64,000 bases of DNA from an uncultured delta proteobacterium (GTDB lineage: Bacteria > Desulfobacterota > Desulfomonilia > Desulfomonilales > Desulfomonilaceae): contig CAWBKB010000006.1 in assembly GCA_963789265.1 (NCBI GenBank), positions 352,001-416,000 of the forward strand, written 5' to 3'. Both the position numbers and the translations under genes were made by a program. Positions 3,571 through 61,487 of the stretch are shown here, in pieces. The notes beneath the pieces are model-generated. The model worked only from the letters and a program-made list of their open reading frames with translations. It ran no database searches and was not told the DNA's origin. Position 1 is the first letter of the stretch; each line of letters starts with the position of its first letter.

Positions 3571-3718
3571 GTCATTGCGAGGGCGCCGGCCCGTGGCTAT
3601 CTTTCATCCGGGTGAGCATAAATTGCCGGTGGGACGTCCCGCGCGGAACGCGGGATTGCCCGTCATCCCTAATAGACAGGCTAGAAGCCTGTCTCACCAT
3701 TCACTCCTCGCAATGACA
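3571..3718. repeat. Composite palindromic repeat (GTCATTGCGAG...CTCGCAATGACA shell, inner REP pair, mini-hairpin at 3637-3656)
   Basis: Inverted ends; 3622-3718 is the reverse complement of 19103-19187 apart from the mini-hairpin and a few substitutions. Confidence 0.85.
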
Positions 3719-3811
3719 TTGCGCTCTTAACCGGGCTCTTTGGCAACGGCACAATTCCGATTTTTGTGTATTCCCTAACTTCAAACAGGTTCAGAAGGCG
3801 AGGATTGTATA

Positions 3812-4606
3812 ATGCCGGAGGTACCCGTTCGAGGACGGTTGCTGGCCTATGAGAGACAGCCCGAAGATCTTGATAGATCATCGCTGTCGGTAGTCTTTAT
3901 TCACGGTAGCGGCGGCGACCGCGAAGATTGGCGTGCGCAGCTTGACGGGCTCTCATGGGCGGCCACCGTCGTCGCGTTGGAATTGCCCGGTCACGGAGCA
4001 TCCGAGCCGCCCGGAGAAATCTCCGTAGGCGCATACGCGCGATGGGTGACGGATTTCGTTGATGTCCTGGGACTACAAAGAGTCGTACTCGTCGGATGTT
4101 CTCTGGGAAGCGCCATCACGGAGTGGATCGCTCTTTTCGCTGCCCGGCCCTGGCTTGTAGGGATCGGATTGGTCGGAGCAGGCGCTCGCCTGCGTGTTCA
4201 TCCGGCCTTCCTGGATGGCCTCCGGCAGGATAAGGAGACGGCGCTGGCCATGCTTTCCGACTACTGCCTTTCGCCGGCATCAGGCGAACCGCTTCGCACA
4301 AGACTAAGGGAAAGATACCTCAAGACATCAGCGGATTTAGTTCATGGGGATCTGAGCGCGTGTAACGAGTTCGATGTGATGGATAAAATCCATCAGGTAC
4401 GATTGCCGACCTCGATTCTTGTAGGAGAAGATGACCGACTCACTCCGGTCAAATATGCGCGCTTCCTGCACGACAAAATTAGCGGCTCACACCTGGCCGT
4501 CGTGCCCCAAGCGGGCCACTTGGTCATGATGGAAAAGCCGGAGGAGTTCAACCGCCTCCTCGCTGAGTTCCTCGCCGAACTGAAGGGGCGACCGAACAGC
4601 CCCTAA
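3812..4606 (+). CDS. Alpha/beta hydrolase
   Basis: VFIHGSGG, LPGHGAS, GCSLGS nucleophile elbow, GEDD, AGH. Confidence 0.9.
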   Translation: MPEVPVRGRLLAYERQPEDLDRSSLSVVFIHGSGGDREDWRAQLDGLSWAATVVALELPGHGASEPPGEISVGAYARWVTDFVDVLGLQRVVLVGCSLGSAITEWIALFAARPWLVGIGLVGAGARLRVHPAFLDGLRQDKETALAMLSDYCLSPASGEPLRTRLRERYLKTSADLVHGDLSACNEFDVMDKIHQVRLPTSILVGEDDRLTPVKYARFLHDKISGSHLAVVPQAGHLVMMEKPEEFNRLLAEFLAELKGRPNSP

Positions 4607-4622
4607 AGCAATCATATACTTG

Positions 4623-5654
4623 TCATGTGTTGGAGATCTCTCGGAGAAGATCTATATCTTCGAGCATCTTTCCAGCCCCGCGAGCCACAGTAGACAGGGG
4701 ATCCTCGGGTACCACTATAGGGACTCCAATCTCGCGGCGCACCCGCACGTCCAGGTTCTTCAGGAGAGAGCCTCCTCCCGTGAGGACTATTCCTGTGTCG
4801 ATAATATCCGCCGCCAATTCGGGCGGACATTGTTCCAGGGCCATTTTCACGCTGTCCACGATGGAATTCACCGAATCCATTATGGCGTGTGCCACATCTG
4901 TGGAGCTTACTGTTATGGTTTTGGGAATGCCATCCATCAAATCCCGGCCCTTTATGTCTACTTCCTCAACCTCGTCGTCCAGACTGGCCCGGCCCACCAG
5001 TATTTTGATCTGCTCGGCAGTGGATGGTCCTATAAGAAGGCTGTAATTCTTGCGGATGAACTCGAGGATGTCCATATCGAGCTTGTCCCCGGCGATCTTG
5101 CTCGAGTTGCTGTAAACTATACCCGTCAGCGAAATTATCGCGACCTCTGTGGTTCCGCCGCCTATATCGACAATCATGTTGCTCATCGGCTCGGTAACTG
5201 GAAGACCGGCGCCCATGGCCGCCGCCATAGCCTCCTGGACGATGAACACTTCGTGAGCCCCCACGTTTAGGGCGGAGTCCCGCACTGCCCGTCTTTCGAC
5301 CGGGGTGACGCCGGCAGGCACAGAGATGATTACCCGTGGTCTGACAAAGGATTTCCGTTGGTGAACTTTTTGGATAAAGAACTTCAGCATTAAGCTGGCA
5401 ATCTCGAAGTTAGCTATGACGCCTTCCCTGAGCGGACGAAACACCTCGATGGAACCCGGAACTCGCCCTATCATCTTCTTGGCGTCCTCGCCTATCCAAA
5501 TCTCCGAATTTCGCTTATCCTTTCTTCGGATTGCCACGACCGACGGCTCGTTGAGCACGATCCCTTTTCCACGTGCATATACCAGCGTATTTGCCGTACC
5601 CAGGTCTATCGCCAGGTCCTTCGAAACTTTGGATGCTAAAAAGCTAAGAAGCAT
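4623..5654 (-). CDS. mreB: Rod shape-determining protein MreB
   Basis: AIDLGTANTLVY, VDIGGGTTEVA, LTGGGSLL. Confidence 0.95.
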   Translation of the reverse strand: MLLSFLASKVSKDLAIDLGTANTLVYARGKGIVLNEPSVVAIRRKDKRNSEIWIGEDAKKMIGRVPGSIEVFRPLREGVIANFEIASLMLKFFIQKVHQRKSFVRPRVIISVPAGVTPVERRAVRDSALNVGAHEVFIVQEAMAAAMGAGLPVTEPMSNMIVDIGGGTTEVAIISLTGIVYSNSSKIAGDKLDMDILEFIRKNYSLLIGPSTAEQIKILVGRASLDDEVEEVDIKGRDLMDGIPKTITVSSTDVAHAIMDSVNSIVDSVKMALEQCPPELAADIIDTGIVLTGGGSLLKNLDVRVRREIGVPIVVPEDPLSTVARGAGKMLEDIDLLREISNT

Positions 5655-5966
5655 CTGTTGCCCTTCGAAGAGCGTTGTCTGGTAACGAAAAGAAAAGAAG
5701 TCCGGAGGTCAAAAAGTCTGAATGAGGGAATGATTACGAAACGCCCTCACCGCGAGTCTTCCGAACTCTGTGCACAGGATTGCTAGGGGGCGCCATTTCC
5801 GGCCGCTAGGTAGACCGGCAACACAGCGCTTTACGTAAGCGCCGTGTGCTTTCAAGAACTCTGCTGAGAAGCCTGGCTTGACCAGGGATTCGCGGTTTTT
5901 GACCTCGCAAAATTCAATCGGAATACTATAGTCTTTGCGTTGTCCGGTGCATAACAGCCCATTAGG

Positions 5967-7238
5967 TCAAAGCTTCACTTCAATGATGGAATTCTTTTTC
6001 AGCTCTTCGATATATTCCTTCATGCGGGCATGAATGGTCTCATGTCTTACCAGGGCGATCACCTTGTTTCGGACCTTTTTGTATTCTTTTTCTTCCGCTG
6101 GGGTCAATATACCCAGAGTTTTCTTGGTCTTGGAGTCCGGCGATGCTGCTGCACCCTTTTCGGAAGCGACCTCTTTGGCAGGGCCGGCGTTTGCTTTGGG
6201 AGGTCCCTCCTTGTTGGCAGCCTGACGCTGCTTTTGCATCTCTTTCCAGCGTTTCTCCAATTGTTTGCGGACCTTTTCCGGGATCTTGACCTTCTTCACG
6301 GTCCTGCCTTTAGCATCCACAAGATAAAACATGATCAGCGCGTCCGGGCCTGTCAAAGGTGGACTCACGTCCCCCGGTTTCATACGCTGCACGAGCTTCT
6401 GCATGGCAGGAACCATGTCCTTGTAGTTCATGGCCCCAAGATTTCCGCCCGAGGAGGCCAGGGAGTCTTGCGAGTACTTCTTGGCAAGCTTGGCAAAATC
6501 AACCCCCGTCATGGCCTCCTTGTAAATCTGCTTTGCCTTCTCCATTACTTTGGCGACGCTCTTGCGACTCTTATCCGCCGGCATCTTCAGTGTGATCTGT
6601 CGAAGCCTCAACCTGCCTCCTACAAATAGTTGCTCGTAAGTGGGAATTGCAGGTCCGGTCTGCGCTCCGCTCGCCGGCTTTGGTGTGAAGCTTTCGACAA
6701 GTTTCTTATAAAGCTCTTCGATATTGTCCCGATTTTTCTTGAAGTATTTTTGGGCGTCCTCTTCACTCAATGGGACTTTTTGCAGCACTTCACTGGCAAT
6801 TAATCGACTTAATATGAGTTGGCGCTTCATTATTTTTCGGTATTCAGCATAATTAATCCCGTGACCAGCCAGCAAGAGAACGAATTGCTCTTGCGTAAGT
6901 CCATTCCGCTTTCTTATCGCTTCTATGGAAGCATCCACCCCTTTGTCATCGACCTTAATCCCCTTCTTGACCGCGGCCTGTTCCAGGAGATGGGTAACTA
7001 TAAGCTCATCGAGGATGTCTCGGTCCGTGGGCACTTTACCCGGTGGTATGACCCCTAGAGGCAGGTTCGTGAGATTTCGCATAAATGGTTGTTTGTGTTT
7101 CCTTATGTCCGACTCCAGGATCACATCTCCATTTACTATGGCGGCTATCCGGTCCGAGTAGCCTTCAGCATGGAGGAGTGGAACGATCCACGCTGAGCCG
7201 AGAATCAGCAATATAAGGCAGACGTTGGTCCTTTTCAT
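5967..7238 (-). CDS. SurA-family chaperone/parvulin peptidyl-prolyl isomerase
   Basis: Signal peptide, DRIAAIVNGDVI, FAKLAKKYSQD...GGNLG; follows mfd. Confidence 0.85.
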   Translation of the reverse strand: MKRTNVCLILLILGSAWIVPLLHAEGYSDRIAAIVNGDVILESDIRKHKQPFMRNLTNLPLGVIPPGKVPTDRDILDELIVTHLLEQAAVKKGIKVDDKGVDASIEAIRKRNGLTQEQFVLLLAGHGINYAEYRKIMKRQLILSRLIASEVLQKVPLSEEDAQKYFKKNRDNIEELYKKLVESFTPKPASGAQTGPAIPTYEQLFVGGRLRLRQITLKMPADKSRKSVAKVMEKAKQIYKEAMTGVDFAKLAKKYSQDSLASSGGNLGAMNYKDMVPAMQKLVQRMKPGDVSPPLTGPDALIMFYLVDAKGRTVKKVKIPEKVRKQLEKRWKEMQKQRQAANKEGPPKANAGPAKEVASEKGAAASPDSKTKKTLGILTPAEEKEYKKVRNKVIALVRHETIHARMKEYIEELKKNSIIEVKL

Positions 7239-7747
7239 GTTTCCTTGCCGGTATTCCGGCAGACCTTTAACTAAGTCTCGATGCTTCTTTCACACAAAAC
7301 GGGTTTGCTCGCATCGAGCCAAACGGATTCCTTGCCTTGTCTCTCATACCAGTCCGCGCAACCCGGGGCAAGCATTCATCGTGGAACCCGGGCAAATAGG
7401 CCGGGGGCGGCCTATTTCCCGTCTTAAATACCATGTACAGTTCCAAACCGTTACATGTTTAATCAAAAGCAGTCCTTTTTGCAACCTTGTAGGAATCTAG
7501 TTGTCAGGCTCTGCCGCGACCACATATACCGCCGGGCTCCGCCGCAAAATGTCAGGTCAGCTTCGAGAGAGCAACCGGCAAGCAGTGCTTTGAATCATCA
7601 GGCGTGCAGATCGGCTTCGAAGCCGGAGCCTCCTCCTACGGACCTACGGACCTCCGGGCTGAGGACTGGGACCTGGAACAGTGAAGAGTGCAAGTTGCCG
7701 CGATTGAGCCTTGCTCGCCGACACGCGCATTGATATTGATACTCATT

Positions 7748-10700
7748 TCAAAGAGATGGATTAACACTTTCAGCACCGGACCTTTTGCCGTTGATTGACT
7801 CCCTCAGACGCTCCAGCAGAGCCAAGCACTTCTTGATCCTGGACATAGGGTCCACTTTCCCGACGCGAAATGCAAGGCGATCCCCGGGTAGAAGTCGAAT
7901 CCGCCCGTCATTTTGAGACCAACTGATCAGAGTTTGCGGATTTACCCGAGTTTCCGTATCAAACGTGAAGACGAGGTCCTGTTCGTTATAATCGAGCCTC
8001 AGGATTCGCACTTCTTTCATGGCCAGCCTTATCCGCATGACCTGCATCAGTTGGGCAACCTGCAAAGGAGTCTGACCGTAGAGATCCACAATCTCTTCTT
8101 CTATCTCGTCAATTTCGGCCGGCTCGGAGGCCCTGGAAAGCCTCTTATAAAGGTTCATACGCTGTTGCGGATCGGGAGCGTAATCTTCGGGAATAAAGGC
8201 TTCCAACTTGAGGCGTATGTCCGGATCGATCCGAGGCGCGGGTTCTTCCCCCTTTATCTCTTGAATGGCCTGCTGCAGCAATTCCAGGTACATTTCGTAT
8301 CCCACTTGGGCCACGTGTCCGGACTGTGATGTTCCCAGGATGTTGCCTGCGCCACGGATCTCCATATCTCTCATTGCAATTCGGAAGCCCTGACCGAGAT
8401 TGGAATATTCCTGTATTACCGCGAGCCTCTTGATCGCGTCTGCGGTCATGAGGGTCTCCGGCGGAGTAAGCAAGTAAGCGTACGCCCGCATGTGCGATCG
8501 CCCTACGCGTCCCCTGAGCTGATATAGGTCTGCGAGTCCAAAAGCGTCGGCCCTTTCTATTATTATGGTGTTGGCCCTGGGGATATCGAGTCCGGATTCA
8601 ATTATGCTCGTGCAAACCAGAATGTTGATCCCCCCGGTAATGAATTCCAACATCACTCGTTCCAACTCACGGTCCGCCATTTGGCCGTGAGCTACCCCGA
8701 ATCGACCTTCCGGGACGAGCTTTTGAAGTGCAGCAGAGCGTTTATAAATGGTTCGGACCCGGTTGTGAATGTAGAAGGCCTGTCCGCCCCGACTTATTTC
8801 CCGCACAAGCGCCTCTCTTATGACCTCATCGGACTGCCGCATGACGTGCGTTCGGATCGATTGCCGGTTTGCGGGTGGAGTTTCAATTACCGACAGGTCA
8901 CGTATTCCGGTGAGGGACAGATTCAGTGTCCTGGGAATAGGCGTCGCGGTCAAGGTGAGCACGTCAACGTGAGCCTTGAACTTCTTGATCCTCTCCTTGT
9001 GCGAGACTCCAAAACGTTGCTCCTCGTCAACCACCAGCAGCCCCAGATCTTTGAATTCCACATCTTTTTGCAACAGTCTGTGCGTACCTATCATCAGATC
9101 GACTTTTCCAGCAGCAAGCCGCTTCAGGGTTTCCTTCTGCTCGGCCGGGCTACGGAAGCGCGACGGTACACCCACATGAAAAGGATATCCGTTCAAGCGA
9201 CGGGTGAAGGTGTCGTAATGCTGCTGGGCAAGAACCGTGGTGGGGACCAGGACTGCAACTTGTTTGCCGTCCATCATAACTCGAAATGCAGCCCTCAGCG
9301 CGACTTCAGTTTTGCCGTAGCCGACGTCTCCGCATACAAGCCTATCCATGGGTTTGTCCTGGTCCATGGCCTCCATGACGTCTGAAATGGCCTTGGTCTG
9401 ATCCGGCGTTTCTTCAAATTCGAAGGAAGCCTCAAAAGCAGCAAAAACTTCATCCATAGCGGAGTACGGCCTGCGGGCGCTCACCTGTCGTTTGGCAAAT
9501 ATCTCCAGGAGTTCTCGAGCCATTTCCCGGATCGACTTCTTGACCTTGGCCTTGGTCTTGCTCCATCCCTTGCCGCCCAGACGGTCTATCCGAGGAGGCT
9601 CCTCAGAACCGGAAATGTACTTTTGGATCACCTGCAAGCGCTCAACAGGATGATAGAGCAAATCCCCGCCGGAATATTCGATCACCATTACTTCGCCGGG
9701 GATGCCGTCGAATTCCTTGGAAGCAAGACCGCGAAATATGCCGATGCCGTAATCTTCGTGAACTACAGGTTCGCCTTCGACCAGATCGGTCAAAGAGGAG
9801 AGCAATGTTCCTCTTGCGCGCCTCTTGGGGGGAATTCTCACTCTGGCGCCGAAAATCTCTTCTTCGGTCACAATTATCCGGCGAGCCTCTTGCATTCGGA
9901 ATCCGGCGGATAGCGCTCCTATGCACAGGCGAATACCGGGTATTGGGGTCGAATCGAGGTTTGATCGTTCAAAAAGTCCGCTTCTGAAATCTAAATTGAG
10001 CGAATAAGGTTCCAGAAGTTTGAGAAGGCGATGAGCCTGGCCTTGAGTGTGGCTGACCAACAAGACTTCATTACCGTCGTCCCGCCATGATTCCAGACGT
10101 TTGACAAGTCTTGCCATGCTCGTGTCGTAAGTCTTGGTCCCCAGGAGATCCCGTCTTATGTCGTCATTTGTCTGGCAGTTAATCCTAAAGGCCCGAAGGT
10201 GCGGATTTTCAATTTCCAAAGGAGACACGACCACAGTACGGAATTTTTCCACTTCGCGCACGAACTCATCCGGAGAAAGATAAAGTTCTTCAGGCCGCGG
10301 AACGGGGAGTCCCTCCTGTGTGGCAGATTCCCAGCCTCGGAAAATTTCTTCTTGCAGATCTTCAAATGCGCGGCCCAGAGTATCCGCGTCGGGAAGCATC
10401 AGGACAGAATCGCGGGGGAGGTAGTCAAACAGGCTCTGCAAGTTCGGAAAGAAATAAGGAAGATAGCATTCAGCCCCGGGAAATCTCACCGAATGTCGGA
10501 AATCATCGACAAGCCTCTGGCGAACCCTCTTTTCCACTCCCTGCTCTTCACAAACGTCCAACAGCCGTTGTAAGCCTGCGCCCAAAGCTTTTTCATCCGG
10601 AATCAGCGCGTGGACGGGACCGACTTGAACCTCGGAAACAGCTTCGCGAGATCTCTGATTGGAAGGATCGAAGAAACGGATCGACTCGATACGATCCCCC

Positions 10701-11320: not shown

Positions 11321-11560
11321 AAACTCGAATTCTTTCGACTCTCAGGATTCGAGTCGGTTCCGATATACCGGTCCCCGTTGGGTAAAAGTTCGGGGAGAAC
11401 GGATGAATCTTTGTCAAAGGACAACAGGGTAATTTAGTTCACAGCGATCCAATTTGGCAATAGTTGCGTGAACCCACAAACGATGAATGGCGTCGGATTG
11501 ATCCCATTGACTTGAGCGGTGCGATCAGTTATCCATTTGACAAAACTCCGAGGTGAAACT

Positions 11561-12268
11561 GTGGCTGAGAAGAAGCTCTCGCGCAAGGAACTCCTTAAGG
11601 AACCTGATGAATTCCTTACCATAACCGGCAAAGTGATTGAATACACACGAGATTATCCGAAGACCGTCGCGGCGGGAATCGCTCTCGTGGTGATCGTCTT
11701 GTTGGCCGGGGCAGGCGTCTATTATTACTACAAGAACCGCGAGGCTAAGAGCCACGAACTCATCGAGCAAGTGTGGCGCGACTATGAGGTCGCCGTTCAA
11801 TCTCCGCGCCAACCGACTCCTGAGAAATTAGATCAACTTTTTGCTGAATTCAACGCTATGGCGAAGCAGTACAAGTCCCTTCCAGCCGGAGAGATCGCGC
11901 TACTATATAGTGGGCATGTGCTATATGCGAAGGGCGATTTCAAGGGAGCACTGCAACGGTATGAGGCGATGCAGTCCACCAATCTCGTGAAAAATGGTCT
12001 AGGTCCTCTCGTTCTCTACCATATTGCGATGTGTCGTTTTCACCTCAAGGAGTACGATCGGGCTGTAATGTTGTTCGATCAACTTTCGAAGGACATCAAT
12101 TCCCCATATCGGCGTGAGGCCTACGGCACGATCGCCAGGATCTACGAATTGATGGGCAAGAACAAAGAAGCCATTCAGGCATACCGGCAATATCTCAAGA
12201 TGTTTCCGGAAGCACCCGATGCTGCTTTTGTCAGAGCAAAAATAGCCGAAATCGCAGCACGGGCTTAG
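11561..12268 (+). CDS. Membrane-anchored TPR protein (YfgM-like)
   Basis: GTG start after GAGG; KKLSRKELLKEPDEF, single TM segment, TPR helices. Confidence 0.8.
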   Translation: MAEKKLSRKELLKEPDEFLTITGKVIEYTRDYPKTVAAGIALVVIVLLAGAGVYYYYKNREAKSHELIEQVWRDYEVAVQSPRQPTPEKLDQLFAEFNAMAKQYKSLPAGEIALLYSGHVLYAKGDFKGALQRYEAMQSTNLVKNGLGPLVLYHIAMCRFHLKEYDRAVMLFDQLSKDINSPYRREAYGTIARIYELMGKNKEAIQAYRQYLKMFPEAPDAAFVRAKIAEIAARA

Positions 12269-12328
12269 CATCCCGACAGCGGGAAATGCTTTGCCCTGTT
12301 CCTCGCAGCGTTGTGGCCGCGGGAATTC

Positions 12329-12550: not shown

Positions 12551-12643
12551 AATTCTATTCTCTTAAGGAAGAGAATAGACGCATCTGCAATCAGCGTCAA
12601 CACCGAGGGCGACGGTCTACGCGCATGAAAATGGCGATAGTGC

Positions 12644-12672: not shown

Positions 12673-12734
12673 CGGCGGGGGGATTGTGTTTTAACTATTT
12701 ATGATTCAATAGAGTTGGTGAAAGGAGGAGTGAC

Positions 12735-15462: not shown

Positions 15463-15591
15463 TCGGTCTTCCCGTTTCTAATATATTGGACGCAAATACG
15501 GCGGCAATGTTATACGGTAGGAGAAAAAATCGGAAACACTATTAGTTTTTTTTACGTACATGCAGGGCAAAAAAATTCCTGACGCATTTTA

Positions 15592-15754
15592 TACCCATTG
15601 CCAAAAGTTCTGTCCGATTGGAGATAGCCTGACACCGTCATTCCGGCGGAGGCCGGAATCCAGTCTTTTCAATCCCGCGTTCCTCGCGGGACTGGACCCT
15701 GGCTTTCGCCGGGGTGACGGGTGGTGAACAGGTCATTACTTTTGGCAATAGCTA
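15592..15754. mobile_element. MITE with IS630-like ends and palindromic cargo
   Basis: TACCCATTGCCAAAAGT / ACTTTTGGCAATAGCTA inverted ends, TA on both flanks; contains a GTCATTCCGGC...GGGGTGAC repeat. Confidence 0.65.
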
Positions 15755-15859
15755 TAATCCTCAAGCTCCCAGTTCGCGGCACCGGGCAGACCACAAAGGC
15801 GCAAACAACAACCCTTGCAAATTGCCTGCTCGGTGCTCTGGGAAGACGGTTCGGTTTCG

Positions 15860-19102: not shown

Positions 19103-19470
<368 letters not shown>

Positions 19471-19644: not shown

Positions 19645-19725
19645 TGTCATTGCGAGGAGTGAAACGACGAAGCAATCTAAGCGGCGTTTAAGGCAAGAGA
19701 TTGCTTCGCTTCGCTCGCAATGACA
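19645..19725. repeat. TGTCATTGCGAG...CTCGCAATGACA palindromic element (intact reference copy)
   Basis: Perfect 12-bp inverted ends; internal AAGCAATCT/AGATTGCTT. Confidence 0.9.
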
Positions 19726-21450: not shown

Positions 21451-21583
21451 GTATGCATTCAGTTACAGCCGGAATTTGCAGGTGGCTTCGTGGGGTGGGT
21501 TTTCTAGCCCGCCATTGAACAGGGATTTCCTGGGCAGGCTGTCCCGCGCCTCGCGGGACTGCCCCACAAGACTGAATGGTTAC
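21451..21583. mobile_element. MITE with IS66-like ends carrying a REP pair
   Basis: GTATGCATTCAG...CTGAATGGTTAC; CCTTGACGC direct repeat on both flanks. Confidence 0.7.
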
Positions 21584-24646: not shown

Positions 24647-24782
24647 TCCCTGCCGGCGGATCATCGGCGACCCCGCGTCGCGCGGGGAGGCCGGTCCTAC
24701 CAAAAGAGTTGCGACTACAGTTATCATGTGCATCAGATTACGGGACCGTATTTAGGAAATCAGGTACCAAGGCGGAGCATTC

Positions 24783-28579: not shown

Positions 28580-28770
28580 CATAGGCGTTAACTTAACCCC
28601 GCGAGACGTGGGGTTCCCCCCTTTCGTAAAGGGGGGCCAGGGGGGATTTTGGGATAACTACTTGAAAATCCCCCTAAATCCCCCTTTATAAGGGGGGACT
28701 TTGATCGCCCTCGGCCTGCATGGACCTCCCGAAAAGGAACGAAATTGCCTTAACTTAACGCGAAAATGCG
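28580..28770. repeat. Degenerate MITE-like element with CCCCCTTT...AAAGGGGG palindromic cargo
   Basis: CATAGGCGTTAACTTAA and TTAACTTAACGCG ends; two poly-C/poly-G hairpins in inverted arrangement. Confidence 0.6.
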
Positions 28771-39711: not shown

Positions 39712-40167
39712 TTGGCTACATCGTTCGTGAGTTGCGTCATGCATTACGTATTCAGCACCAAAGGGCGCAACCCTCTCTTAGTCGACCAGATGAGGACAAG
39801 CCTCTGGGCCTATATGGGGGCCATTTCACGCAATTATCGGATGAAAGCCTTGGCTGTTTGGTGGAACTGCAGACCACGTCCACATTTTGATGTCGTTACC
39901 TTCGTCGATTTCCATTGCTGATGGTATTCGACTGATCAAGGGCAATTCATCTAAGTGGGTTAATGAAACGTTCCCCTCTCCGACAGGTTTTGCTTGGCAG
40001 ACCGGATATGGAGCATTTAGTGTGAGCCGCTTGTTCATTCCGGAAACCATCGGCTATATCAATAATCAACCATCCCATCACAGAATCACAACCTTTCAAG
40101 AGGAGTACGTGTACACTTTTTGGAGAAACATGGATTGGAATACGACGTACGATATTTGTGGGGATAA
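39712..40167 (+). pseudogene. tnpA: IS200/IS605-superfamily Y1 HUH transposase (REP-associated type); two frameshifts
   Basis: HYVFSTKGR, GGTADHVHIL, KGNSSKW, FAWQTGYGAFSVS, YINNQ..HH, LEKHGLEYDVRYLW across three frames. Confidence 0.85.
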
Positions 40168-41868: not shown

Positions 41869-42050
41869 TTTATCGCCGGGAGAGCAGGAACAACAGGCCT
41901 TTGTCGTCCCTTTAGGGACGATTGATGCCTTGGATAGGCCAGGAACGGCCCGCCGTCCCTACAGGACTGGAATATGCTTGGTTTTCGACTCCACCTGGCG
42001 ATGAATCGCCAGGCTACTATCAAATGTTCCTCCGGAACACGATTCGTGCA
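41869..42050. repeat. REP cluster adjoining the IS1182 right end
   Basis: GTCCC-TTTA-GGGAC; GTCCCTACAGGAC; CCTGGCGATGAATCGCCAGG-CTAC. Confidence 0.8.
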
Positions 42051-48641: not shown

Positions 48642-48898
48642 AGTAGGGTGGGCATCCTGCCCGCCAATTAATGTCGTGGGCATCCCGCCGCCCGACTGAT
48701 TTTGATGGAGTGGTCACTCATACCGGTTCGCTCACAATGAGTGAGACCCGGCAAATAGCGAACGGCACTGATCTGGCATCATGACGGAACTCAGGTCAAT
48801 GGCGCCCAACATCCATTCATAAGATCCCGGGTACCACCCCGCCATGCCCTTCATCTGGAATCGACGGGCAATCCCGCGCTTCGCGGGACCACCCTACT
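48642..48898. repeat. GTAG REP pair; right arm carries the mini-hairpin
   Basis: GTAGGGTGGGCATCCTGCCCGCC ... GACGGGCA[ATCCCGCGCTTCGCGGGA]CCACCCTAC. Confidence 0.8.
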
Positions 48899-49807: not shown

Positions 49808-49893
49808 AGATTGCTTCGCTGCGCTCGCAACGACAGATAGCGTGAATGTCATTGCGAGGAGTGAAATCCCGCGTCCCGCGGGAAAGCAATCCC
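49808..49893. repeat. TGTCATTGCGAG-family element halves; one carries the mini-hairpin
   Basis: GATTGCTTCGCTGCGCTCGCAACGACA and TGTCATTGCGAGGAGTGAA[hairpin]AAGCAATC. Confidence 0.8.
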
Positions 49894-52375: not shown

Positions 52376-52473
52376 ATTGATGGCCGCACTTCCTTTTACC
52401 CCTGTCATAAAAGGCCATCCGGCCCATTCTTCCTAAGCGTGTAAAATTCCTGCAATCGGTGCATCTGCGTCCA

Positions 52474-54129: not shown

Positions 54130-54193
54130 CTTCAGTCAAAAATCCCCCCCTTTCCCCATGAGCGTTAAAATAGCCAGCCTCTCAGAATTTGAG

Positions 54194-54600
54194 AGCCCCA
54201 GCGGGGCTCAATGATAGTAGCCCGGCAATTCAGAAACTGTCTCAAAACTATGTTGATGCCGAGCATCGTGCCACGATGGCTGCCCGGCACTAAAGTACCG
54301 GTCTACTCTCAATCGCCCCGATGGGGCTCAAATACAAACGTCCCGGAGGGACTAGTGATAGTAGCCCGGTAATTCATTGCCGGGAATAGGGAGCATTCGT
54401 GTTACGATTTCGTTCGGTTCCAGGGTTTTGAGACACTTTCTTCATTGCCGGGGGACCGGTGAGCGATGATCCAGTTCTTCGTTCCCAGGGCGCCGGAGGT
54501 AAAAATGCTTCGGGCGCCCTGGGGACGAACAGGCTCTCTTGGCCGCTTGTTCCCGGCGATCCCGCGTTCCGCGGGACTATCGGGATGTCCCTCCGGGACA
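54194..54600. repeat. REP cluster interrupted by a MITE; distal arm carries the mini-hairpin
   Basis: GATAGTAGCCCGGCAATTCA|TTGCCGGG ... CCCGGCG[ATCCCGCGTTCCGCGGGA]CTATC...GTCCCTCCGGGAC. Confidence 0.8.
54233..54440. mobile_element. IS1182-type MITE copy 3 (208 bp, inverted relative to copies 1 and 2)
   Basis: GAAACTGTCTCAAAA/TTTTGAGACACTTTC ends; TTCA 4-bp duplication; REP cargo. Confidence 0.88.
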
Positions 54601-54654
54601 GCAACGCCTCAGCAATCAATCAACCTTATTTTAACGGCTATGCCCCTTTCCCCG

Positions 54655-55974
54655 TTAATGTTGAATCCCGCGTTCCAGTGAAAGATTAATAATCTCGCAT
54701 GTATGAGACACACTCCAGCTACGGCCCCACTTTTTCCGGGCGTACTGGAGTTGCATTAAGCAACCGGGGTTGGAAGTAATGACCCTTTCGGCCCCCGTTT
54801 TGTCGATCGCTGCGACCTTGGCCTCAAGGATCTTCATGGCTCGTTCACGGTGGGTAATATTGTAGATTCCGGCCGAACCGCAGCATTGTCCTTCATCAAG
54901 GATGTCTTTCAGCGTGAGGCCGGGTATCAGGCCCAGCACGTCGCGCTGCGGAGTGATGAGCCTTTGCCCGTGGCGTAGGTGACAGGGATCATGAAAACAA
55001 ACTGTCTCGGGGATTGCACCAAGTTTGATGTAGTCCTTCAGCGCAGGAGCCAGGAATTCGGATATGTCCCGAACCTTTGCGGAAAATGCCTCAGCCTTCT
55101 CGGCCATGCGGGCACGCTGGCCAAGGGTTTCGCGGTAGGCTTTCAATTCGGATCCGCACGCGGCGCAGTCCGTGACAATCGCTTCCACTCTTTTTTCTTC
55201 GAACAGGTTTACATTGTGTTCGGCCATTTCGCGGTAAATTTTTCGCTCGCCTTCAGCGATGTTGGGTGTACCGCAACACTGCTGGTTTTTCGGAACAACG
55301 ACCGTGTACCCCGCTCGAGTGAGAATGTTTATTGTGGCTCGACTCACTTCTCCGAAGATGAGGTTCATTGCGCAGCCCAAGAAAAAGCCCACTCGGCCCC
55401 TTTCCTTTCCAACCGCGGGGATTTCTTCGGGCAGAGTATGGCTTAACGGCCGCACAGGAAGAGGCGGCAGCAAGGATTCCATAAATTCCAAATCAGGTGA
55501 GATGAGGCGCAAAATGTGGGATTTCTCAATTAGCCGTTGAAGCCCCGAATACTGGTACACGCGTAGAGGCGTTAAAAGATGCGAGAGCTTTTCCTGATCA
55601 CGAATGGCATGATGGAGGACAAATCGCTTCAATAGAGGCTGCGCGGTATTCTCCTCAATCCGATGCCGCGCCTCAAGGACTAATTCGCCCACTTTGACTC
55701 CCGCGGGGCAAACGGTTTGGCAATTGCGGCAGTCCAGGCAATGGTACATGTGGCCCACAAATTCTTCCGAAGCCGACAATCGTCCGTCAATGACTGCCTT
55801 GATCATAGCCACGCGGCCTCGGGGAGACTGGGTCTCTATACCGTCGGTGCGATAGGTCGGGCAGGTAGGGAGGCAGGTTCCGCACCTCATACACTGGAGG
55901 ACATCGCCGTAATCGTGAATATCCAAAGTAGCCAAAGCCTTGGCAATCTTCTCTGAATCGACGTGCTTGCCCAT
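54655..55974 (-). CDS. glcF: GlcF-like Fe-S subunit (2x[4Fe-4S] plus CCG domains)
   Basis: CMRCGTCLPTCPTY, SPRGR, QQCCG, FHDPCHL, CCGSAGIYN, NPGC. Confidence 0.85.
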   Translation of the reverse strand: MGKHVDSEKIAKALATLDIHDYGDVLQCMRCGTCLPTCPTYRTDGIETQSPRGRVAMIKAVIDGRLSASEEFVGHMYHCLDCRNCQTVCPAGVKVGELVLEARHRIEENTAQPLLKRFVLHHAIRDQEKLSHLLTPLRVYQYSGLQRLIEKSHILRLISPDLEFMESLLPPLPVRPLSHTLPEEIPAVGKERGRVGFFLGCAMNLIFGEVSRATINILTRAGYTVVVPKNQQCCGTPNIAEGERKIYREMAEHNVNLFEEKRVEAIVTDCAACGSELKAYRETLGQRARMAEKAEAFSAKVRDISEFLAPALKDYIKLGAIPETVCFHDPCHLRHGQRLITPQRDVLGLIPGLTLKDILDEGQCCGSAGIYNITHRERAMKILEAKVAAIDKTGAERVITSNPGCLMQLQYARKKWGRSWSVSHTCEIINLSLERGIQH

Positions 55975-55979
55975 AGAAG

Positions 55980-57368
55980 CTATTCTGTATTCTCCAGAAA
56001 TATTTTTCCCGGATTGAGACGGCCTTCAGGGTCGAAGGCCCGTTTGATCTTTCTCATAACCTCAATGGCCTTCGGGCCTACCATTTGAGGCAGATATTTG
56101 GATTTCGTGATTCCCGTGCCATGCTCGCCCGAGATGGTACCGCCGAGGCTGATGGCCTTTTTGAAAATTTCGTCATAAGCGGCTTCCACTCGATGAATTT
56201 CTTCGGTATCTCGTTCGTCGGTCAGACAAGTTGGGTGGAGATTGCCGTCACCCGCGTGCCCGAATGTCCCGATCTTTATTGAATATCTTTTGGCGGCTTC
56301 CTGGATGGCAGCCATCATCTCCGGGATAGCCGGCCGAGGCACCGTCACATCTTCGAGTATCGTGGTCGGCCTGACTCGCGCCAGAGCTGTGAGAGCATTC
56401 CGTCGAGCGGTGAACAGCTCTTCCGATTCTTTCAGGTCCTTGGCCACCCGCAATGTCCGGGCCCGGTTGGCTCGACAAGCTTCTTCAATGCCCGCGGCTT
56501 CCTCTCCAACAACCTCCGGGTGTCCGTCCGCCTCGATCAGAAGCAGTGCGGCCACATCGCGTGGCAGGCCGATCATGACGTGATCTTCCACGCAGTTAAT
56601 AGTCATCGAGTCCATCAGTTCCAGGGTAGAGGGAATGATCTTGCGTGAGATTATTGTGGAAACTGTGCGTGCAGCATCTATTATATCGTCGTACAGAGCA
56701 AGAAAGGTTTTCCTGGCCCGCGGCTTGGGAATGAGCTTTAGCGTTATCTTTGAGAAGATTCCGATTGTTCCTTCGGAACCCGTCAAGAATTTGGTGAGGT
56801 TGTACCCCGCCACGTCTTTCACGCACTTGGTTCCATAATGGACCTTGGACCCATCAATCAGCCACGTGTCAAGGGCAAGCACATAGTCGCCGGTGATCCC
56901 GTACTTCAGTCCTCGCAAACCTCCGGCATTTTCTGCCACGTTCCCGCCGATGGTACAAACCTTCATGCTTCCCGGATCGGGTGGATAGAACAGGTTTTGG
57001 GCTTCAACGGCAGCATGAAGATCCGCGGTAATCACCCCCGGTTCTACGGTCACTGAGAGGTCATTCGACTCGATCTCGATGATGCGGTTCATGGCAGTAG
57101 TGGCAATGACAATCCCGCCCTTCACCGGGACGGAACCGCCGCTCAGACCTGTACCGCTCCCCCTGGTGGTGACCGGCAGTCCTTCCCGTGCAGCGAATTC
57201 CAAGGTCAAACCGATATCTTCTTCTGTGATAACGCGGACAACCGCGTCAGGCTTGTGAGAAACAAGAGGAGCGGCGTCGTACGAGTAGCAAAGCAGCTCT
57301 GCCTCAGAGGACAGGACCTTGCTTTTGCCGAGCAGGCGTTCCAATTCGTTCACAAATGGTTTACGCAT
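55980..57368 (-). CDS. glcD: GlcD/LctD-like FAD-linked 2-hydroxyacid dehydrogenase
   Basis: RGSGTGLSGG, YPPDPGS, GSEGT, GHAGDGNLHP, SGEHGTG, LNPGKI. Confidence 0.88.
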   Translation of the reverse strand: MRKPFVNELERLLGKSKVLSSEAELLCYSYDAAPLVSHKPDAVVRVITEEDIGLTLEFAAREGLPVTTRGSGTGLSGGSVPVKGGIVIATTAMNRIIEIESNDLSVTVEPGVITADLHAAVEAQNLFYPPDPGSMKVCTIGGNVAENAGGLRGLKYGITGDYVLALDTWLIDGSKVHYGTKCVKDVAGYNLTKFLTGSEGTIGIFSKITLKLIPKPRARKTFLALYDDIIDAARTVSTIISRKIIPSTLELMDSMTINCVEDHVMIGLPRDVAALLLIEADGHPEVVGEEAAGIEEACRANRARTLRVAKDLKESEELFTARRNALTALARVRPTTILEDVTVPRPAIPEMMAAIQEAAKRYSIKIGTFGHAGDGNLHPTCLTDERDTEEIHRVEAAYDEIFKKAISLGGTISGEHGTGITKSKYLPQMVGPKAIEVMRKIKRAFDPEGRLNPGKIFLENTE

Positions 57369-57395
57369 CTTAAGGGCTGTTCGGCCGAGGCAACA

Positions 57396-57809
57396 TTACG
57401 CGGCCGTCAGTTCGTATGTCAGGCGGTCATCTTCAAGGTTGGTCACACGTATCTTCACTTTCATGCCTGCTTTGATTGCATCGTCAGGAAGAGAGCGGTC
57501 CATTCGGCCAAAGACCTTAATGCCGTCCGCGAATTCCGCGACTGCCAGCACGTACGGGACATCCTTTTCAAAGCCCGCAGGCGCATACATCGCCTTTGTG
57601 TACGTCAGGACAGTTCCCTCGCCCGCAACAGGGAACCATTCCATATCATCGCTGAGACAAACGTCGCAGTCACTGCGTGGCGGAAAGAATTTGGCTCCGC
57701 ATCGCATGCACAAGGTGCCGGACAACTCGTTATTCTTCAGCAGATCCACAAATTGTTCAGTCTTCGTCACACCGGTGAAACTTATGATGCCGAACTGTTC
57801 AAATCCCAT
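57396..57809 (-). CDS. DUF35 Zn-ribbon/OB-fold protein
   Basis: CMRCG...FPPR..CDVC; PYVLAVAE; GGAGG RBS. Confidence 0.9.
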   Translation of the reverse strand: MGFEQFGIISFTGVTKTEQFVDLLKNNELSGTLCMRCGAKFFPPRSDCDVCLSDDMEWFPVAGEGTVLTYTKAMYAPAGFEKDVPYVLAVAEFADGIKVFGRMDRSLPDDAIKAGMKVKIRVTNLEDDRLTYELTAA

Positions 57810-57831
57810 GTCAATCCTCCAGAAAAGGCGT

Positions 57832-57970
57832 TTACCGCGGAGAGCGCAGAGACCGCGGAGAAATAAGTGTTCTTTATTTCTGTGGCAGGTGAGATATATG
57901 TCTGTACGACTCACCTTGTCATGTCCAAAGCATTTATCTCTCTGCGATCTCTGTGAACTCTGCGGTGAAT
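57832..57970. repeat. CCGCGGAGAGCGCAGAG...CTCTGCGGT palindromic element
   Basis: Related to the cargo at 61286-61480 and to 19288/19440. Confidence 0.75.
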
Positions 57971-57973
57971 TTC

Positions 57974-59128
57974 TTACTCCGCCCCGAATATGCTCACATT
58001 GCCATAGATGCCTACGCCGCCTATGTTATGGACCAGCCCGATTTTCGCGTCCGGCACCTGCATATCCCCTGCCTCGCCTCGCAACTGCAAGATAATGGTA
58101 CGGATTTGCGAGCCTCCGGTGGCTCCGATGGGATGCCCCTTGGAGAGCAATCCTCCATCTACGTTGACCGGAATATTGCCTTCCTTATAGGTCTCTTTGT
58201 TTCGAATAAGCTCTTTCCCTCGGCCCGGCTCTGCGAATCCCAGGTCTTCGTACGCCATCATCTCTGCGATTGTGAAGCAATCGTGGACTTCGGCTACGTC
58301 CACGTCTTTTGCTGTTATGCCCGCCATTTCGTAAGCTCGCTTTGCTGCCAGTTGCGCACACTTCAGTCCGCTAAAGGTATCTCTACCGGCCATGTTTATC
58401 GGAGCCGTAGCCATGCCGAGCCCTTTTATCCAAATCGGTTTTTTGCAAAGGGCCTTCGCCCTTTCTTCGGAGGCAAGGATGACGCACGATGAGCCGTCCG
58501 CGTTCGCGCAACAATCGTACATCTTGAGAGGCGTGGCGATATACTTCGGCTCAAGCACTTTGTCCAGCGTCAAAGATTTGCGGAAGACCGCTTTCTCGTT
58601 GATCTGCCCGTAAGTTGAGGACTTGACGCGAATGAGGGCCAGGTCTTCCTCGGAAGTGCCGTACTTCTCGAAATGCCCGCGGGCGTACATTGCGTAGTAA
58701 GCCGGCATCATGGTTCCAAAAGGAGCTTCCCACTGAATATCCGCGCCGCGTCCCATTCTCTCTTGAGATTCCGCAGAAGAGATTTCGGACATCTTCTGGA
58801 AGCCCAGCACGAGCACAACGTCGTGAAGGCCGGACGCGATAAGTGCGTACGCGGTTCTGAGGCCACTGGAACTGGATGAGCACACGCTTTCTACATAGAA
58901 GGTGGGCTGGGGATTGAGCCCCAGGTACTCTGCCATAAGTCCTGCCGGCGTCCGCTGTTTGTCGTATTCAGGAGCCGAACAGATTACCGATGCGTCGATC
59001 TGTTCCGATTTGAGGCCCGCGTCTTGCATGGCGTCTCGGTAGGCTTCAAAAGCCAGTTCTCGGATCGAACCCGGGTAGGCCCGCACAAAAGCACTTTGGC
59101 CGACGCCGATTACCGCAACCTTTGCCAT
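57974..59128 (-). CDS. SCP2/archaeal-type thiolase
   Basis: VESVCSSS, EVHDCF, GGLLSKGHPIGATG, HNIGG. Confidence 0.92.
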   Translation of the reverse strand: MAKVAVIGVGQSAFVRAYPGSIRELAFEAYRDAMQDAGLKSEQIDASVICSAPEYDKQRTPAGLMAEYLGLNPQPTFYVESVCSSSSSGLRTAYALIASGLHDVVLVLGFQKMSEISSAESQERMGRGADIQWEAPFGTMMPAYYAMYARGHFEKYGTSEEDLALIRVKSSTYGQINEKAVFRKSLTLDKVLEPKYIATPLKMYDCCANADGSSCVILASEERAKALCKKPIWIKGLGMATAPINMAGRDTFSGLKCAQLAAKRAYEMAGITAKDVDVAEVHDCFTIAEMMAYEDLGFAEPGRGKELIRNKETYKEGNIPVNVDGGLLSKGHPIGATGGSQIRTIILQLRGEAGDMQVPDAKIGLVHNIGGVGIYGNVSIFGAE

Positions 59129-59419
59129 GTACTCCTCCTTATATTGAGATTGGAAACTTCGATAATTTGGAAGGTGTCAAATGATACCATGCGGCCGGGT
59201 TCGAGATCAACAGGCTCTCTGAGGACACGGAGATGAACTACGTACGCTCCTGTCGAGTTGACCCCAAGGCACGAGTCTGGTACAAATTGAATGAGCCCAG
59301 CCTTTAAAGGCTATAATCAGAGGGCGCAGCAAGACAAGTGCTGTTGCCTTTTTTCGCTTGTGCTGTGGATGTTGTTCACGGGATGCCATAAACTTTTACC
59401 AAACGAGAAGGAATAAGTG

Positions 59420-59896
59420 ATGAGCTTGGCCAAGCGTCCGATAACCTCTGAAGGACACAAGAAACTAAGAGAGGAACTCGACCGATTGATCCGCGTAGAG
59501 CGACCGGCGGTGATAAAGGAGATCGAAATAGCCTTGGGCCATGGAGATCTCTCAGAGAATGCGGAATACACGTACGGCAAAGAAAAACAGGCCCTCATTG
59601 AAACGCGTATCCGGAGCCTTCAGGATCGGCTTGCCGCTTGCGAAATAATAGATATTGAGAATCGCCCCCCGACGAACCGAATCGTATTCGGATGTTCCGT
59701 CACGATTGAGGATTTAGATACCAGTGAACAGAAGGTTTACCAGCTTCTTGGGCAGGACGAGGCCGACATAAGACGCGGGGTCATATCAGTCGATTCCCCG
59801 CTGGGGCGAGCCCTCATCGGCAAAGAGGTCGACGACGTTGTGGAGGTGAAAACTCCCAACGGCCTTCGAGAGTTCGAAGTCCTTGAGATCTCCTGA
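59420..59896 (+). CDS. greA: Transcription elongation factor GreA
   Basis: HGDLSENAEY, ISVDSPLGRALIGK. Confidence 0.95.
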   Translation: MSLAKRPITSEGHKKLREELDRLIRVERPAVIKEIEIALGHGDLSENAEYTYGKEKQALIETRIRSLQDRLAACEIIDIENRPPTNRIVFGCSVTIEDLDTSEQKVYQLLGQDEADIRRGVISVDSPLGRALIGKEVDDVVEVKTPNGLREFEVLEIS

Positions 59897-59939
59897 AACA
59901 AGCGATTTATAATTGCTCATGAGTTGGTCAGAGGCGGAT

Positions 59940-61259
59940 ATGCACGACAAAACTGCACCGCAATCGGCCGCGTCCTACCCCGGAGTTCTCATATTGTGCG
60001 ATTTTGACGGCACTGTGTCAACGAAGGACACTGTGAATCGTCTGGTGAGAGAACACGCGACGTCGCCGGAATGGCGCTATTACGTGAAGCGGTATATGCT
60101 CGGAGAAATAGGCTCCCGGGAAGTATACGAAGGCATCGCGCCCCTAATGAGGATGACTCGTGAGGACCTGGAAATGTTCGTCCGCAACCACGCGGCACTG
60201 GATCCGAGTTTTCCCCAATTCCTGGCATGGGCCAAGAGACGAGGAATCGACGTCAAAATTGTCTCCGACGGATTCGATGCCACAATAGAAAGATTGTTTC
60301 ACAACCACGGAATCTCGGGGCTGGAAATCTTCGCCAACACCCTAACCTTCGGAGACGACGGCAGAGTCTCAATGGCTAGCCCGCATTCCAATCCTGCATG
60401 CGGAACCTGTGGCACGTGCAAGTTGAGCATTTTGCGAAAGTTTCGGCCTTATTATGACAAGATCGTTTTGATCGGGGACGGGGAGTCCGACCGCCACGTC
60501 GCAGGTGAAGCCGATGTGGTATTGGCGCTAAACGAGCTTTTTGTATATTGCGCCCGGCATCGCATTCCATCGGTGCGTGTAAGCGGCTTTCAGGAAATTC
60601 CTCAATTACTCACAAGGGGCATCGCGGCCGTGGCATTCGACATGGACGGTACTTTGATCGATTCGCTTGACACCATTACAGACGCGTTTAATCACATGTT
60701 TAAGACGCTCGGTTACCCGTCGATGACCACAGCAGAAGTGGTCCGAACCACTTCAATCTCACTAAAGGATTTTACCGAGACTTACCTCAAACCAGAGGAA
60801 ACGGAAACAGGCATTCGAATCTTTCGAGAATACTACGACGGCATTTTCCTTGAGAAAACGACGATGATTCCGGGGGTAATGGAAACGCTCGCAGCACTTG
60901 ACGGGACAATACTCAAGGGGATCGTCACCAACAAGCGTGGCAATTACGCCCTAAAGCTCGCGGAGCATTTTGGATTCGCTCAAAACATGGCTCGCATCAT
61001 AGGCGCTGAAGACGGCTTCAAGGCTAAGCCGGCTGGAGAAATGTGCGAGGAATTTATCCGCTCGGTGGGGGCCTCCAAAGATAATACGGTCTATGTTGGG
61101 GATGCTCCAATTGATATTCAGGCAGCGAAAAACGCGGGCATAGATGCCTTTGCCGTGGCAAATCCCCTTTTCTCTGCGGAAGATCTGGCACTTTGTGCTC
61201 CCCGTAGAGTATTGAATGATATAACCGAGTTGCCTGCAGCGCTCCGGCCTCTGATATAA
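59940..61259 (+). CDS. Fused MtnX-like HAD-IB phosphatase and Gph-like HAD-IA hydrolase
   Basis: CDFDGTV...VSDGF...IGDGESD, then FDMDGTLIDS...VTNK...KP...VGDAPID. Confidence 0.85.
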   Translation: MHDKTAPQSAASYPGVLILCDFDGTVSTKDTVNRLVREHATSPEWRYYVKRYMLGEIGSREVYEGIAPLMRMTREDLEMFVRNHAALDPSFPQFLAWAKRRGIDVKIVSDGFDATIERLFHNHGISGLEIFANTLTFGDDGRVSMASPHSNPACGTCGTCKLSILRKFRPYYDKIVLIGDGESDRHVAGEADVVLALNELFVYCARHRIPSVRVSGFQEIPQLLTRGIAAVAFDMDGTLIDSLDTITDAFNHMFKTLGYPSMTTAEVVRTTSISLKDFTETYLKPEETETGIRIFREYYDGIFLEKTTMIPGVMETLAALDGTILKGIVTNKRGNYALKLAEHFGFAQNMARIIGAEDGFKAKPAGEMCEEFIRSVGASKDNTVYVGDAPIDIQAAKNAGIDAFAVANPLFSAEDLALCAPRRVLNDITELPAALRPLI

Positions 61260-61260
61260 G

Positions 61261-61487
61261 GTAACCGTTCAGCGGACTTCAAGATTCACCGCAGAGTCCG
61301 CAGAGAACGCAGAGATAAAGGATAGTTTATTCAATTCCACGTCAATCACCGCGTGTACAGTCAGGTCGGCATTGTCCTTCCCGCGTCGTGGGATCACATA
61401 CCGGAACCTGCTGTACACAATTCGCATAAGCGTTCGGAGAAAATAGAATTCTCCGCGGTCTCTGCGCTCTCCGCGGTGAACGATTAC
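61261..61487. mobile_element. MITE with IS66-like ends
   Basis: GTAACCGTTCA...TGAACGATTAC; perfect 8-bp duplication GATATAAG. Confidence 0.8.

Follow-up and report, generated by a model that had tools for sequence, protein, structure and literature searches.

Small hairpin-forming units that sit inside other repeats have reportedly been found in heterocystous cyanobacteria: SDR1-8 of Nostoc and its relatives, ascribed to work of Elhai et al. in 2008, are said to be lineage-restricted, gene-less units of 21-27 nucleotides (nt) nested in other repeats or mini-transposons. These small dispersed repeats (SDRs) are cited in PMC3116915 and PMC5861425. The NTS repeat (CGTCATTCCCGCGMAVGCGGGAATCYRG) is bound as single-stranded DNA by SsnA, a GIY-YIG nuclease of about 94 amino acids (aa), which cuts upstream of the motif and requires the flanks CGTCAT and ATCYRG for both cutting and binding (Chenal et al. 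2025, PMC11893778). In Neisseria, dRS3, which is the bare NTS palindrome, occurs about twice as often as the full motif does (PMC11893778). For the repetitive extragenic palindromes (REPs), the known RAYTs cut at a CT located 5' or 3' of the REP and not inside it (PMC8266576), and insertion sequences (ISs) target REP hairpins (Tobes & Pareja 2006, cited in PMC3116915). How REPs spread is unsolved (PMC8266576), the origin of NTS expansion has been left open (PMC11893778), and the same question stands for every family of similar short palindromes. Here we describe a hairpin of 17-19 nt, referred to below as the mini-hairpin, from a 64,000-nt window of the genome of an uncultured delta proteobacterium from soil (G000:C6:352001-416000; positions given without a contig are those of the window). 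It is a very small lineage-specific module nested in other intergenic repeats, in which it replaces host bases without duplication. In its behaviour it resembles one of the smallest modules to pass between other repeats.

The window belongs to a 6.06-Mb genome of nine contigs with 52% GC and carries ordinary housekeeping genes, among them mfd, valS and the genes for a sigma factor and a lactate permease. The encoded ValRS has its nearest matches (71% identity) in MAGs labelled Syntrophaceae/Syntrophales, which places the genome in the Thermodesulfobacteriota. The mini-hairpin is GC-rich and consists of a perfect 7-bp stem, TCCCGCG/CGCGGGA, and, in the 17-nt form, an all-pyrimidine loop of 3 nt; the 19-nt form looks like the 17-nt form with one extra CG. 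Among strict copies (TCCCGCG-N1-6-CGCGGGA) in this genome, the loops are TCC (33), CCT (33), TCT (31), TTC (25), TTCCG (20) and TTCCT (13). They are nearly all pyrimidine on one strand, and the loop types differ by transitions. These counts bear out the first-pass annotation of the window, which had described a fixed stem with a variable, pyrimidine-rich loop. The outer base pair also occurs as C-G (n = 35) or G-C (n = 45). A change at 24670 that had been called compensatory belongs to the C-G form, a sub-family of 35 copies.

The hairpin is far more frequent than expected by chance. A looser pattern (CCCGCG-N1-8-CGCGGG) gave eight matches in the window as compared to 0.06 expected from 100 shuffles, none of which reached eight, and all eight lie between open reading frames (ORFs) of at least 150 aa. 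Genome-wide, there are 219 strict and 347 looser matches. With up to one substitution allowed, 463 matches were obtained, while the control, a reversed palindrome, gave five. No other perfect 7-bp hairpin stem is as common in the genome as TCCCGCG, which occurs 200 times with a loop of 3-5 nt. The eight full copies of the first-pass annotation were all located where it had placed them, and its two degenerate copies proved to be real relatives with one or two mismatches. Copies also decay: about 240 carry one mismatch, and loop-less derivatives (TCCCGCGGGA), probably central deletions of the palindrome, occupy the same host slots at several sites (e.g., C1:2191912). Orientation counts were 66/60 and 50/43, with a GC skew too weak for replichore assignment. 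All seven genomes of the genus, which were assembled independently, carry the motif (57-219 copies each; reversed control, 0-1), and it is therefore not a library or assembly artefact. With so large an excess over shuffles and reversed patterns in many independent assemblies, an origin by chance or artefact is already refuted, and we give it a negligible probability. The public reads listed are three runs of one soil study, two of which contain parts of the stretch; all three are low-depth Logan contigs, broken within repeats, and gave no usable view of the hairpin sites, and there was no RNA run among those listed.

Nesting is the rule. At least one 40-nt flank with at least three genome hits was found for 203 of the 219 strict copies and for 61 of 219 random non-coding control sites. 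A rough ORF map, which takes in 81% of the genome, includes only 60 of the 219 strict copies. When the strict copies were grouped by the 12 nt on each side, 56 flank contexts were obtained, 29 of them represented by a single copy. Hairpin-less paralogs matching both flanks up to the junction exist for 113 of the 219 copies; the intervening stretch in these paralogs is mostly 5-8 nt long, with a zero-length gap in one pair. Counted by context, 22 of 56 have short hairpin-less counterparts with 4-12 other bases in the hairpin's place. Overall, 4-15 host bases are replaced. Most of the replaced stretches lie at the host hairpin's tip or directly beside it, and no target duplication was seen in comparisons of filled with hairpin-less paralogs. 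As host bases are lost and no target is duplicated, the events are substitutions rather than insertions. Two points of the first-pass annotation are confirmed, namely the replacement of host bases without target duplication and the location of the copies in repeats of several unrelated families. It had further described, for REP hosts, the loss of the loop and part of the 3' arm; in REP-type hosts, the 5' arm and one loop base are kept while the rest of the loop and 3-4 nt of the 3' arm are missing. In other contexts, counted below, a stem arm or linker has been replaced instead.

The hairpin-less state is seen most cleanly in five hosts: the REPs GACGGGCAA-GATGCC-CGTCCCAC and GGCAGGCTG-GAAAGC-CTGCCCCAC, where the middle segment is the stretch replaced; a sub-family of a miniature inverted-repeat transposable element (MITE) of about 168 nt, whose 13 filled and 6 empty copies are near-identical apart from the hairpin or, in its place, TATGTT/CATGTT; the Acido-Lenti-1-like hairpin CCCGGCAA-TGAATTG-CCGGGCTAC; and GGTTCCCA-GGCAGAGC-CTGGGAACC, a host recognised by eye. 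The Rfam model for Acido-Lenti-1 scores one filled copy as a match that is 12 nt longer. The hosts comprise REPs of the GTAG/GTGG type, a MITE resembling a REPIN, hairpins similar to Acido-Lenti-1, and the GTCAT-headed repeats found on either side of small Ssn-like GIY-YIG genes. The four comparisons with intact references inside the window on which the first-pass annotation had relied (the sites at 19158, 48643, about 19654 and 41994) all check out.

Junctions are identical across several REP sub-families with different loops and across two Acido-Lenti-1 host sub-families. Among the 56 contexts, the base just before the hairpin (position -1) is a purine in 47 and never C, the base just after it (position +1) is a pyrimidine in 48, and there is a preference for GCA at -4 to -2, giving a consensus of only GCAR-..-YNG. 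This bias is consistent with short junction homology or with a target preference, and its CA(A/G) part is to some extent inherited because many hosts are related REPs. Loop variants are specific to the host family, which indicates that most copies arose when a composite host multiplied. The separate substitution events number a few tens, not hundreds, and most of the approximately 220-460 copies derive from later host multiplication; the context counts show this in part. A second filler, a 16-nt palindrome (TCACGCCCGGGCGTGA) present in 15 copies and a single context, is seen in this REP slot as well, and the host bases lost there are those lost to the mini-hairpin. It occupies the slot of the REP GACAGGCAA-..-CTGTCCCAC (e.g., C1:164726), always within one larger composite repeat.

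Beyond the genus, the mini-hairpin was found in 17 of 24 other genomes of the family (2-149 copies) and in 1 of 16 of a neighbouring family, as a single copy; the reversed control gave 0-2 matches across the genomes surveyed. REPs and GTCATTGCGAG-type repeats also harbour the module in four other genera, in part with different junctions, and the junctions differ within one host superfamily (16 loci in four genomes). Genome G001, with 85-91% identity, is syntenic with the window over positions 1-39373. The whole repeat block around the copy at 3637 is missing at the orthologous site, as is the MITE that hosts the copy at 15673 (copies 92-96% identical to it occur elsewhere in G001), and the copy at 21542 is missing together with its host. 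The sole copy of G001 in the syntenic stretch sits in a different repeat. Between these two genomes, then, intergenic repeats turn over as whole units, and since the hosts are missing entire, the module's own movement is deduced from paralogs and context diversity only.

The stem points to a relative of NTS. The source genome encodes five small GIY-YIG genes in addition to uvrC. One of them (C7:415058-415348) is flanked by CATTCCCGCG-YA-CGCGGGAATCCAG, which shares the exact 7-bp stem of the mini-hairpin. On either side of three others lie GTCATTGCGAG..GAAGCAATC repeats; no repeat is more common in the genome, and it too serves the mini-hairpin as a host. The GTCATTGCGAGGAGTGAAA-..-AAGCAATC repeat, which hosts the copy at 49867, is of the type that flanks type-2 GIY-YIG genes. 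The mini-hairpin stem agrees with the SRM/NTS palindrome type (TTCCCGCG..GCGGGAA), but its flanks vary across the 56 contexts and do not show the conserved oriented flanks of SRM/NTS (CGTCAT upstream; ATC and then YRG downstream). The repeats beside the five small GIY-YIG genes are full GTCAT-headed forms, not the bare mini-hairpin, and exact full motifs number 11 in the genome as compared to 219 strict mini-hairpins. Of 41 genomes searched for a full NTS-like motif with this stem, 9 yielded it, namely all seven of the genus plus G015 and G018; it was not found in G010, G019, G011 and G014, which have 16-40 mini-hairpins each. Taken together, the mini-hairpin is probably the flank-less core of the genome's own NTS/SRM-like family, standing to it as dRS3 does to NTS in Neisseria. 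The first-pass annotation had also considered that the copies might be eroded cores of the GTCATTCCCGCG..CGCGGGAATCCAG family, which is the NTS/SRM-like repeat flanking a small Ssn-like GIY-YIG gene. The identity of the stem agrees with this; however, the flanks are absent and the copies lie in register inside other repeats, so they are not remnants eroded in place.

A separate observation concerns C7:413404-415700, where two Ssn-like GIY-YIG genes lie 1.5 kb apart, each with its own GTCAT-headed hairpin repeats, one set with the TCCCGCG stem and the other of the GTCATTGCGAG..GAAGCAATC type. This arrangement suggests that the commonest repeat family of the genome is itself an Ssn-related motif.

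How might the substitutions have come about? We favour a short templated patch made from an existing copy on a host folded as a single-strand hairpin, to which we would give about one chance in three. The host repeat would be extruded as a hairpin in single-stranded DNA during replication or repair; synthesis would depart from the host near its tip, copy the very stable mini-hairpin from an existing copy, and rejoin the host a few bases on, guided by a junction homology of 1-5 nt. We propose that patches would survive only at the tips of hairpins, because these spare the mobility of the host. The complete account, in which a mobile module with an NTS-like core entered its hosts by templated patching some tens of times and was then multiplied with them, falls somewhat short of an even chance in our estimate. 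Five observations weigh against it: in about 6 of 16 contexts, judged by eye on folds, the replaced stretch is a stem arm or an inter-hairpin linker outside the tip loop; the CA(A/G) bias of the left flank is present in only about a third of non-REP hosts (counted by eye); a stem unchanged across genera is more readily explained by a protein that recognises it than by slippage without an enzyme; no empty/filled pair was found at orthologous sites, as G001 lacks all five window copies of the syntenic stretch along with their whole hosts; and fixed REP junctions with two different fillers could equally mean that a nuclease cuts the host at set positions.

The latter possibility had been raised by the first-pass annotation: a hairpin-recognising nuclease or transposase would cut the extruded host hairpin at two nearby points and join in the mini-hairpin. 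Candidates for it are the Y1 HUH enzyme of RAYT type that goes with the REP hosts, a single-strand nuclease of the Ssn-like GIY-YIG kind, or another partner. Besides the invariant stem and the REP junctions, fixed within each sub-family, the lack of any C at position -1 in 56 contexts would fit such an enzyme, as would the five small GIY-YIG genes flanked by hairpin repeats, given that Ssn proteins bind such hairpins as single strands (PMC11893778). A REP-flanked RAYT of 204 aa (in the source genome C7:408825-409436, followed by arrays of the GTAG/GTGG host REPs) is encoded in 9 of 11 genomes with at least 37 hairpins, the two without it being 84% and 86% complete, and in none of 22 genomes without hairpins. 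However, these counts are not independent, as the genomes are kin, and RAYT presence follows the REP hosts just as closely, as does the hairpin; in G023, three RAYTs and 109 REPs go with only four hairpins. Nor is there a donor copy beside an HUH gene: none of the six Y1_Tnp hits is flanked by the hairpin, five having none within 3 kb and the sixth having one at a distance of about 2.2 kb. The cuts made by known RAYTs lie outside the REP, and SsnA cuts upstream and requires a CAT flank that the mini-hairpin lacks (PMC8266576, PMC11893778). The type-1 Ssn-like gene likewise shows no strict link, a match of at least 60% identity not being found in four of the six other genus genomes. On balance, we consider a cut-and-join enzyme rather unlikely. 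An old module that no longer moves ranks lower, as a quite unlikely explanation. A few ancient substitutions would have been followed by host amplification and gene conversion, with selection keeping the stem, possibly as a site or decoy for an Ssn-like nuclease. This would explain why loops are host-specific, why the filled copies of one MITE look single-origin, why the same REP-hairpin composite is seen in other genera, why the loops change solely by transitions on a conserved stem, and why no orthologous empty/filled pair was found between G000 and G001. It does not readily explain 56 contexts, 29 of them singletons, in one genome, or junctions that differ between genera within one host superfamily, and the free decay of copies, seen in the one-mismatch and loop-less forms, argues against strong selection on each copy. 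Finally, the hairpin could be the excision footprint of a larger element with TCCCGCG...CGCGGGA termini that targets hairpin tips. The loss of few host bases would be expected of imprecise excision, but none of 771 solo TCCCGCG arms pairs with CGCGGGA across a longer insert in a host slot (arm pairs within 7-120 nt are neighbouring degenerate copies), and the stereotyped loop is unlike a footprint. No longer parent element was found, and we consider an excision footprint very improbable. We therefore rank the templated patch ahead of cutting and joining by a nuclease, and that ahead of an old, immobile protein-binding module.

The copies in the window, their hosts and the intact references are collected in Table 1.

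Table 1. Mini-hairpin copies, host repeats and hairpin-less reference sites in the window.
Feature	Position	Strand	Host or remark
Strict copy, TCCCGCG-CGGAA-CGCGGGA	3637-3655	-	Inside GTGG-headed REP GTGGGACG-..-TTGCCCGTC; hairpin-less form has GATGCC in its place (157 flank-pair matches)
Strict copy, loop TTCCT	15673-15691	+	Spacer of a REPIN-like pair of GTCA-headed hairpins in the MITE of about 168 nt
Host MITE of the preceding copy, bounds ATTGCCAAAAGT and ACTTTTGGCAAT	15591-15757	+	In the genome, about 21 full copies and about 45 cores
Variant copy, TCCCGCG-CAGAA-CGCGGGC (outer T...C)	19228-19246	-	Family ..gatgcggttc..ctcaccagcatcctac; no hairpin-less form of this family found
Strict copy, loop CCT	21542-21558	+	In REP GGCAGGCTG-..-CTGCCCCAC; hairpin-less form has GAAAGC
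C-G outer-pair variant, CCCCGCG-TCG-CGCGGGG	24671-24687	+	Adjoins ..GGCCGGTCCTAC REP arm
Degenerate relative, CCCCGCGAGACGTGGGGT	28597-28614		
Strict copy, loop CTT	48872-48888	+	In REP GACGGGCAA-..-CCACCCTAC; intact partner at 48643-48665
Strict copy, loop TCC	49867-49883	+	In GTCATTGCGAGGAGTGAAA-..-AAGCAATC repeat; hairpin-less form has CGACG
Strict copy, loop TTC	54560-54576	+	In Acido-Lenti-1-like hairpin; loop, entire 3' arm and CTA lost (about 15 nt) relative to 41994-42039
Degenerate copy, TCCCGCGTCGTGGGAT	61379-61394		In repeat of about 230 nt upstream of Nramp gene; paralogs have an intact hairpin
Intact hairpin-less REP reference, GACGGGCAAGATGCCCGTCCCAC	19158-19180	+	
Intact GTCATTGCGAGGAGTGAAACGACGAAGCAATC reference	19646-19677	+	GAGGAGTGAAACGACGAAGCAATC at about 19654-19677
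Intact Acido-Lenti-1 (RF01687) match	41994-42039	+	41.1 bits (gathering score 37); hairpin-less reference for the host at 54560
Intact REP reference, GTAGGGTGGGCATCCTGCCCGCC	48643-48665	-	
Empty site, ..ATTCACC-GCAGAG-TCCGCAGAG	61284-61305	+	Paralog C3:434760 filled with hairpin

Several further observations were made on the hosts and on sequences examined along with them. The repeat of about 230 nt (window about 61270-61520) lies upstream of the Nramp gene (61643-63529), has CGCAGAGAACGCAGAG-type ends and occurs in at least four copies; it has two mini-hairpin slots, one of which is empty and the other degenerate in the window copy. Acido-Lenti-1 was the sole match of an Rfam search of the window and has 55 matches genome-wide, frequently in inverted pairs separated by 10-150 nt; CTAC comes after its first hairpin, as in a REP that is read in reverse. 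Because of the inverted pairs and the CTAC, Acido-Lenti-1 looks here more like repeated DNA or the end of an element than an RNA gene in its own right. A partial Y1_Tnp match (PF01797, profile positions 47-121) at 39860-40069 on the plus strand is probably a transposase fragment, and there is no hairpin within 3 kb of it. A 352-aa protein is encoded in two 99%-identical copies (C1:91572-92627 and C4:127838-128854) and combines an N-terminal Y1 transposase-like domain with a tail that, by eye, is a DnaA-C-like helix-turn-helix. It is widespread in the neighbouring family and shows no link to the hairpin, being present in 11 of 16 genomes of that hairpin-poor family and in two of the six other genus genomes. 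The mini-hairpin is not a CRISPR repeat either, as its copies are dispersed and an array scan gave unrelated repeats only; a short GTTTCAATCCACGCCCCTG-type array with a spacing of about 66 nt at C1:319933-320131 is possibly a small CRISPR, unrelated to the hairpin.

The source genome offers a compact natural experiment on the spread of short palindromes: one 17-nt module lies in at least 20 different hairpin repeats with its junctions mapped, intact host references are at hand, and RAYT and Ssn-like candidate nuclease systems are present in the same genome. Repeat families appear here as modular and able to swap hairpin cores, the copies counted for one "repeat" can in part be hitch-hikers on other repeats, and Acido-Lenti-1, listed by Rfam as an "RNA motif", acts here as repeated DNA with the module inside it. 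If the process is enzyme-driven, it would amount to a site-directed single-strand DNA editing activity. The most far-reaching reading is that a dedicated or co-opted single-stranded DNA nuclease system, which could be Ssn-like GIY-YIG, RAYT-type HUH or another partner, recognises extruded hairpin repeats, trims their tips and writes in the 17-nt hairpin. We regard this as doubtful, but if true, the mini-hairpin would be the smallest actively mobile DNA unit known, and bacterial repeat families would have a general route for exchanging protein-recognition modules.

The first-pass annotation knew of no described system of this kind. This was too strong a statement, since there are close analogues in the dRS3 cores of Neisseria NTS and, by report, in the SDRs of Elhai et al. 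Like what is said of those SDRs, the mini-hairpin is a hairpin unit of about 20 nt in other repeats, lineage-restricted and with no gene of its own; it differs in phylum, in its size of 17-19 nt, in the substitution of host bases and in that no self-nesting was seen. It is best regarded as an analogue and not as a member, the SDR family being defined by sequences in another phylum. A MITE, as an IS-derived element with terminal inverted repeats and a target-site duplication, does not describe it, as no duplication was seen, host bases are lost and no longer parent was found; here, the first-pass view that this is no ordinary MITE was right. ISs that land in REPs share with it the hairpin tip as landing place but are gene-bearing, with defined ends and usually short duplications, whereas the mini-hairpin is a gene-less 17 nt that costs its target some bases. 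With REP, BIME and REPIN sequences and their RAYTs (PMC8266576, PMC3116915), it has in common a high copy number, an intergenic palindromic nature and pyrimidine triloops like those of its REP hosts. Unlike them, it lacks the GTAG/GTGG head that the hosts possess, it is a single 17-nt hairpin inside REPs, and it flanks no RAYT/Y1 gene. In the available portions of the literature on nested or loop-inserted REP elements and on NIME/dRS3, we found no description of a repeat tip substituted by a mini-hairpin. The likeness to NTS/SRM and dRS3 (PMC11893778) extends to the stem, TCCCGC(G)...(C)GCGGGA, to small GIY-YIG genes accompanied by full GTCAT-headed repeats, to a bare core that outnumbers the full oriented motif, and to copies that are intergenic and clustered. 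As compared to NTS as described in the available portion of that paper, the mini-hairpin is distinguished by three features: it lacks the CGTCAT and ATCYRG flanks needed by SsnA; it is present also in genomes where the full motif and the type-1 gene were not found; and it is nested by substitution within other repeats, a feature not described there.

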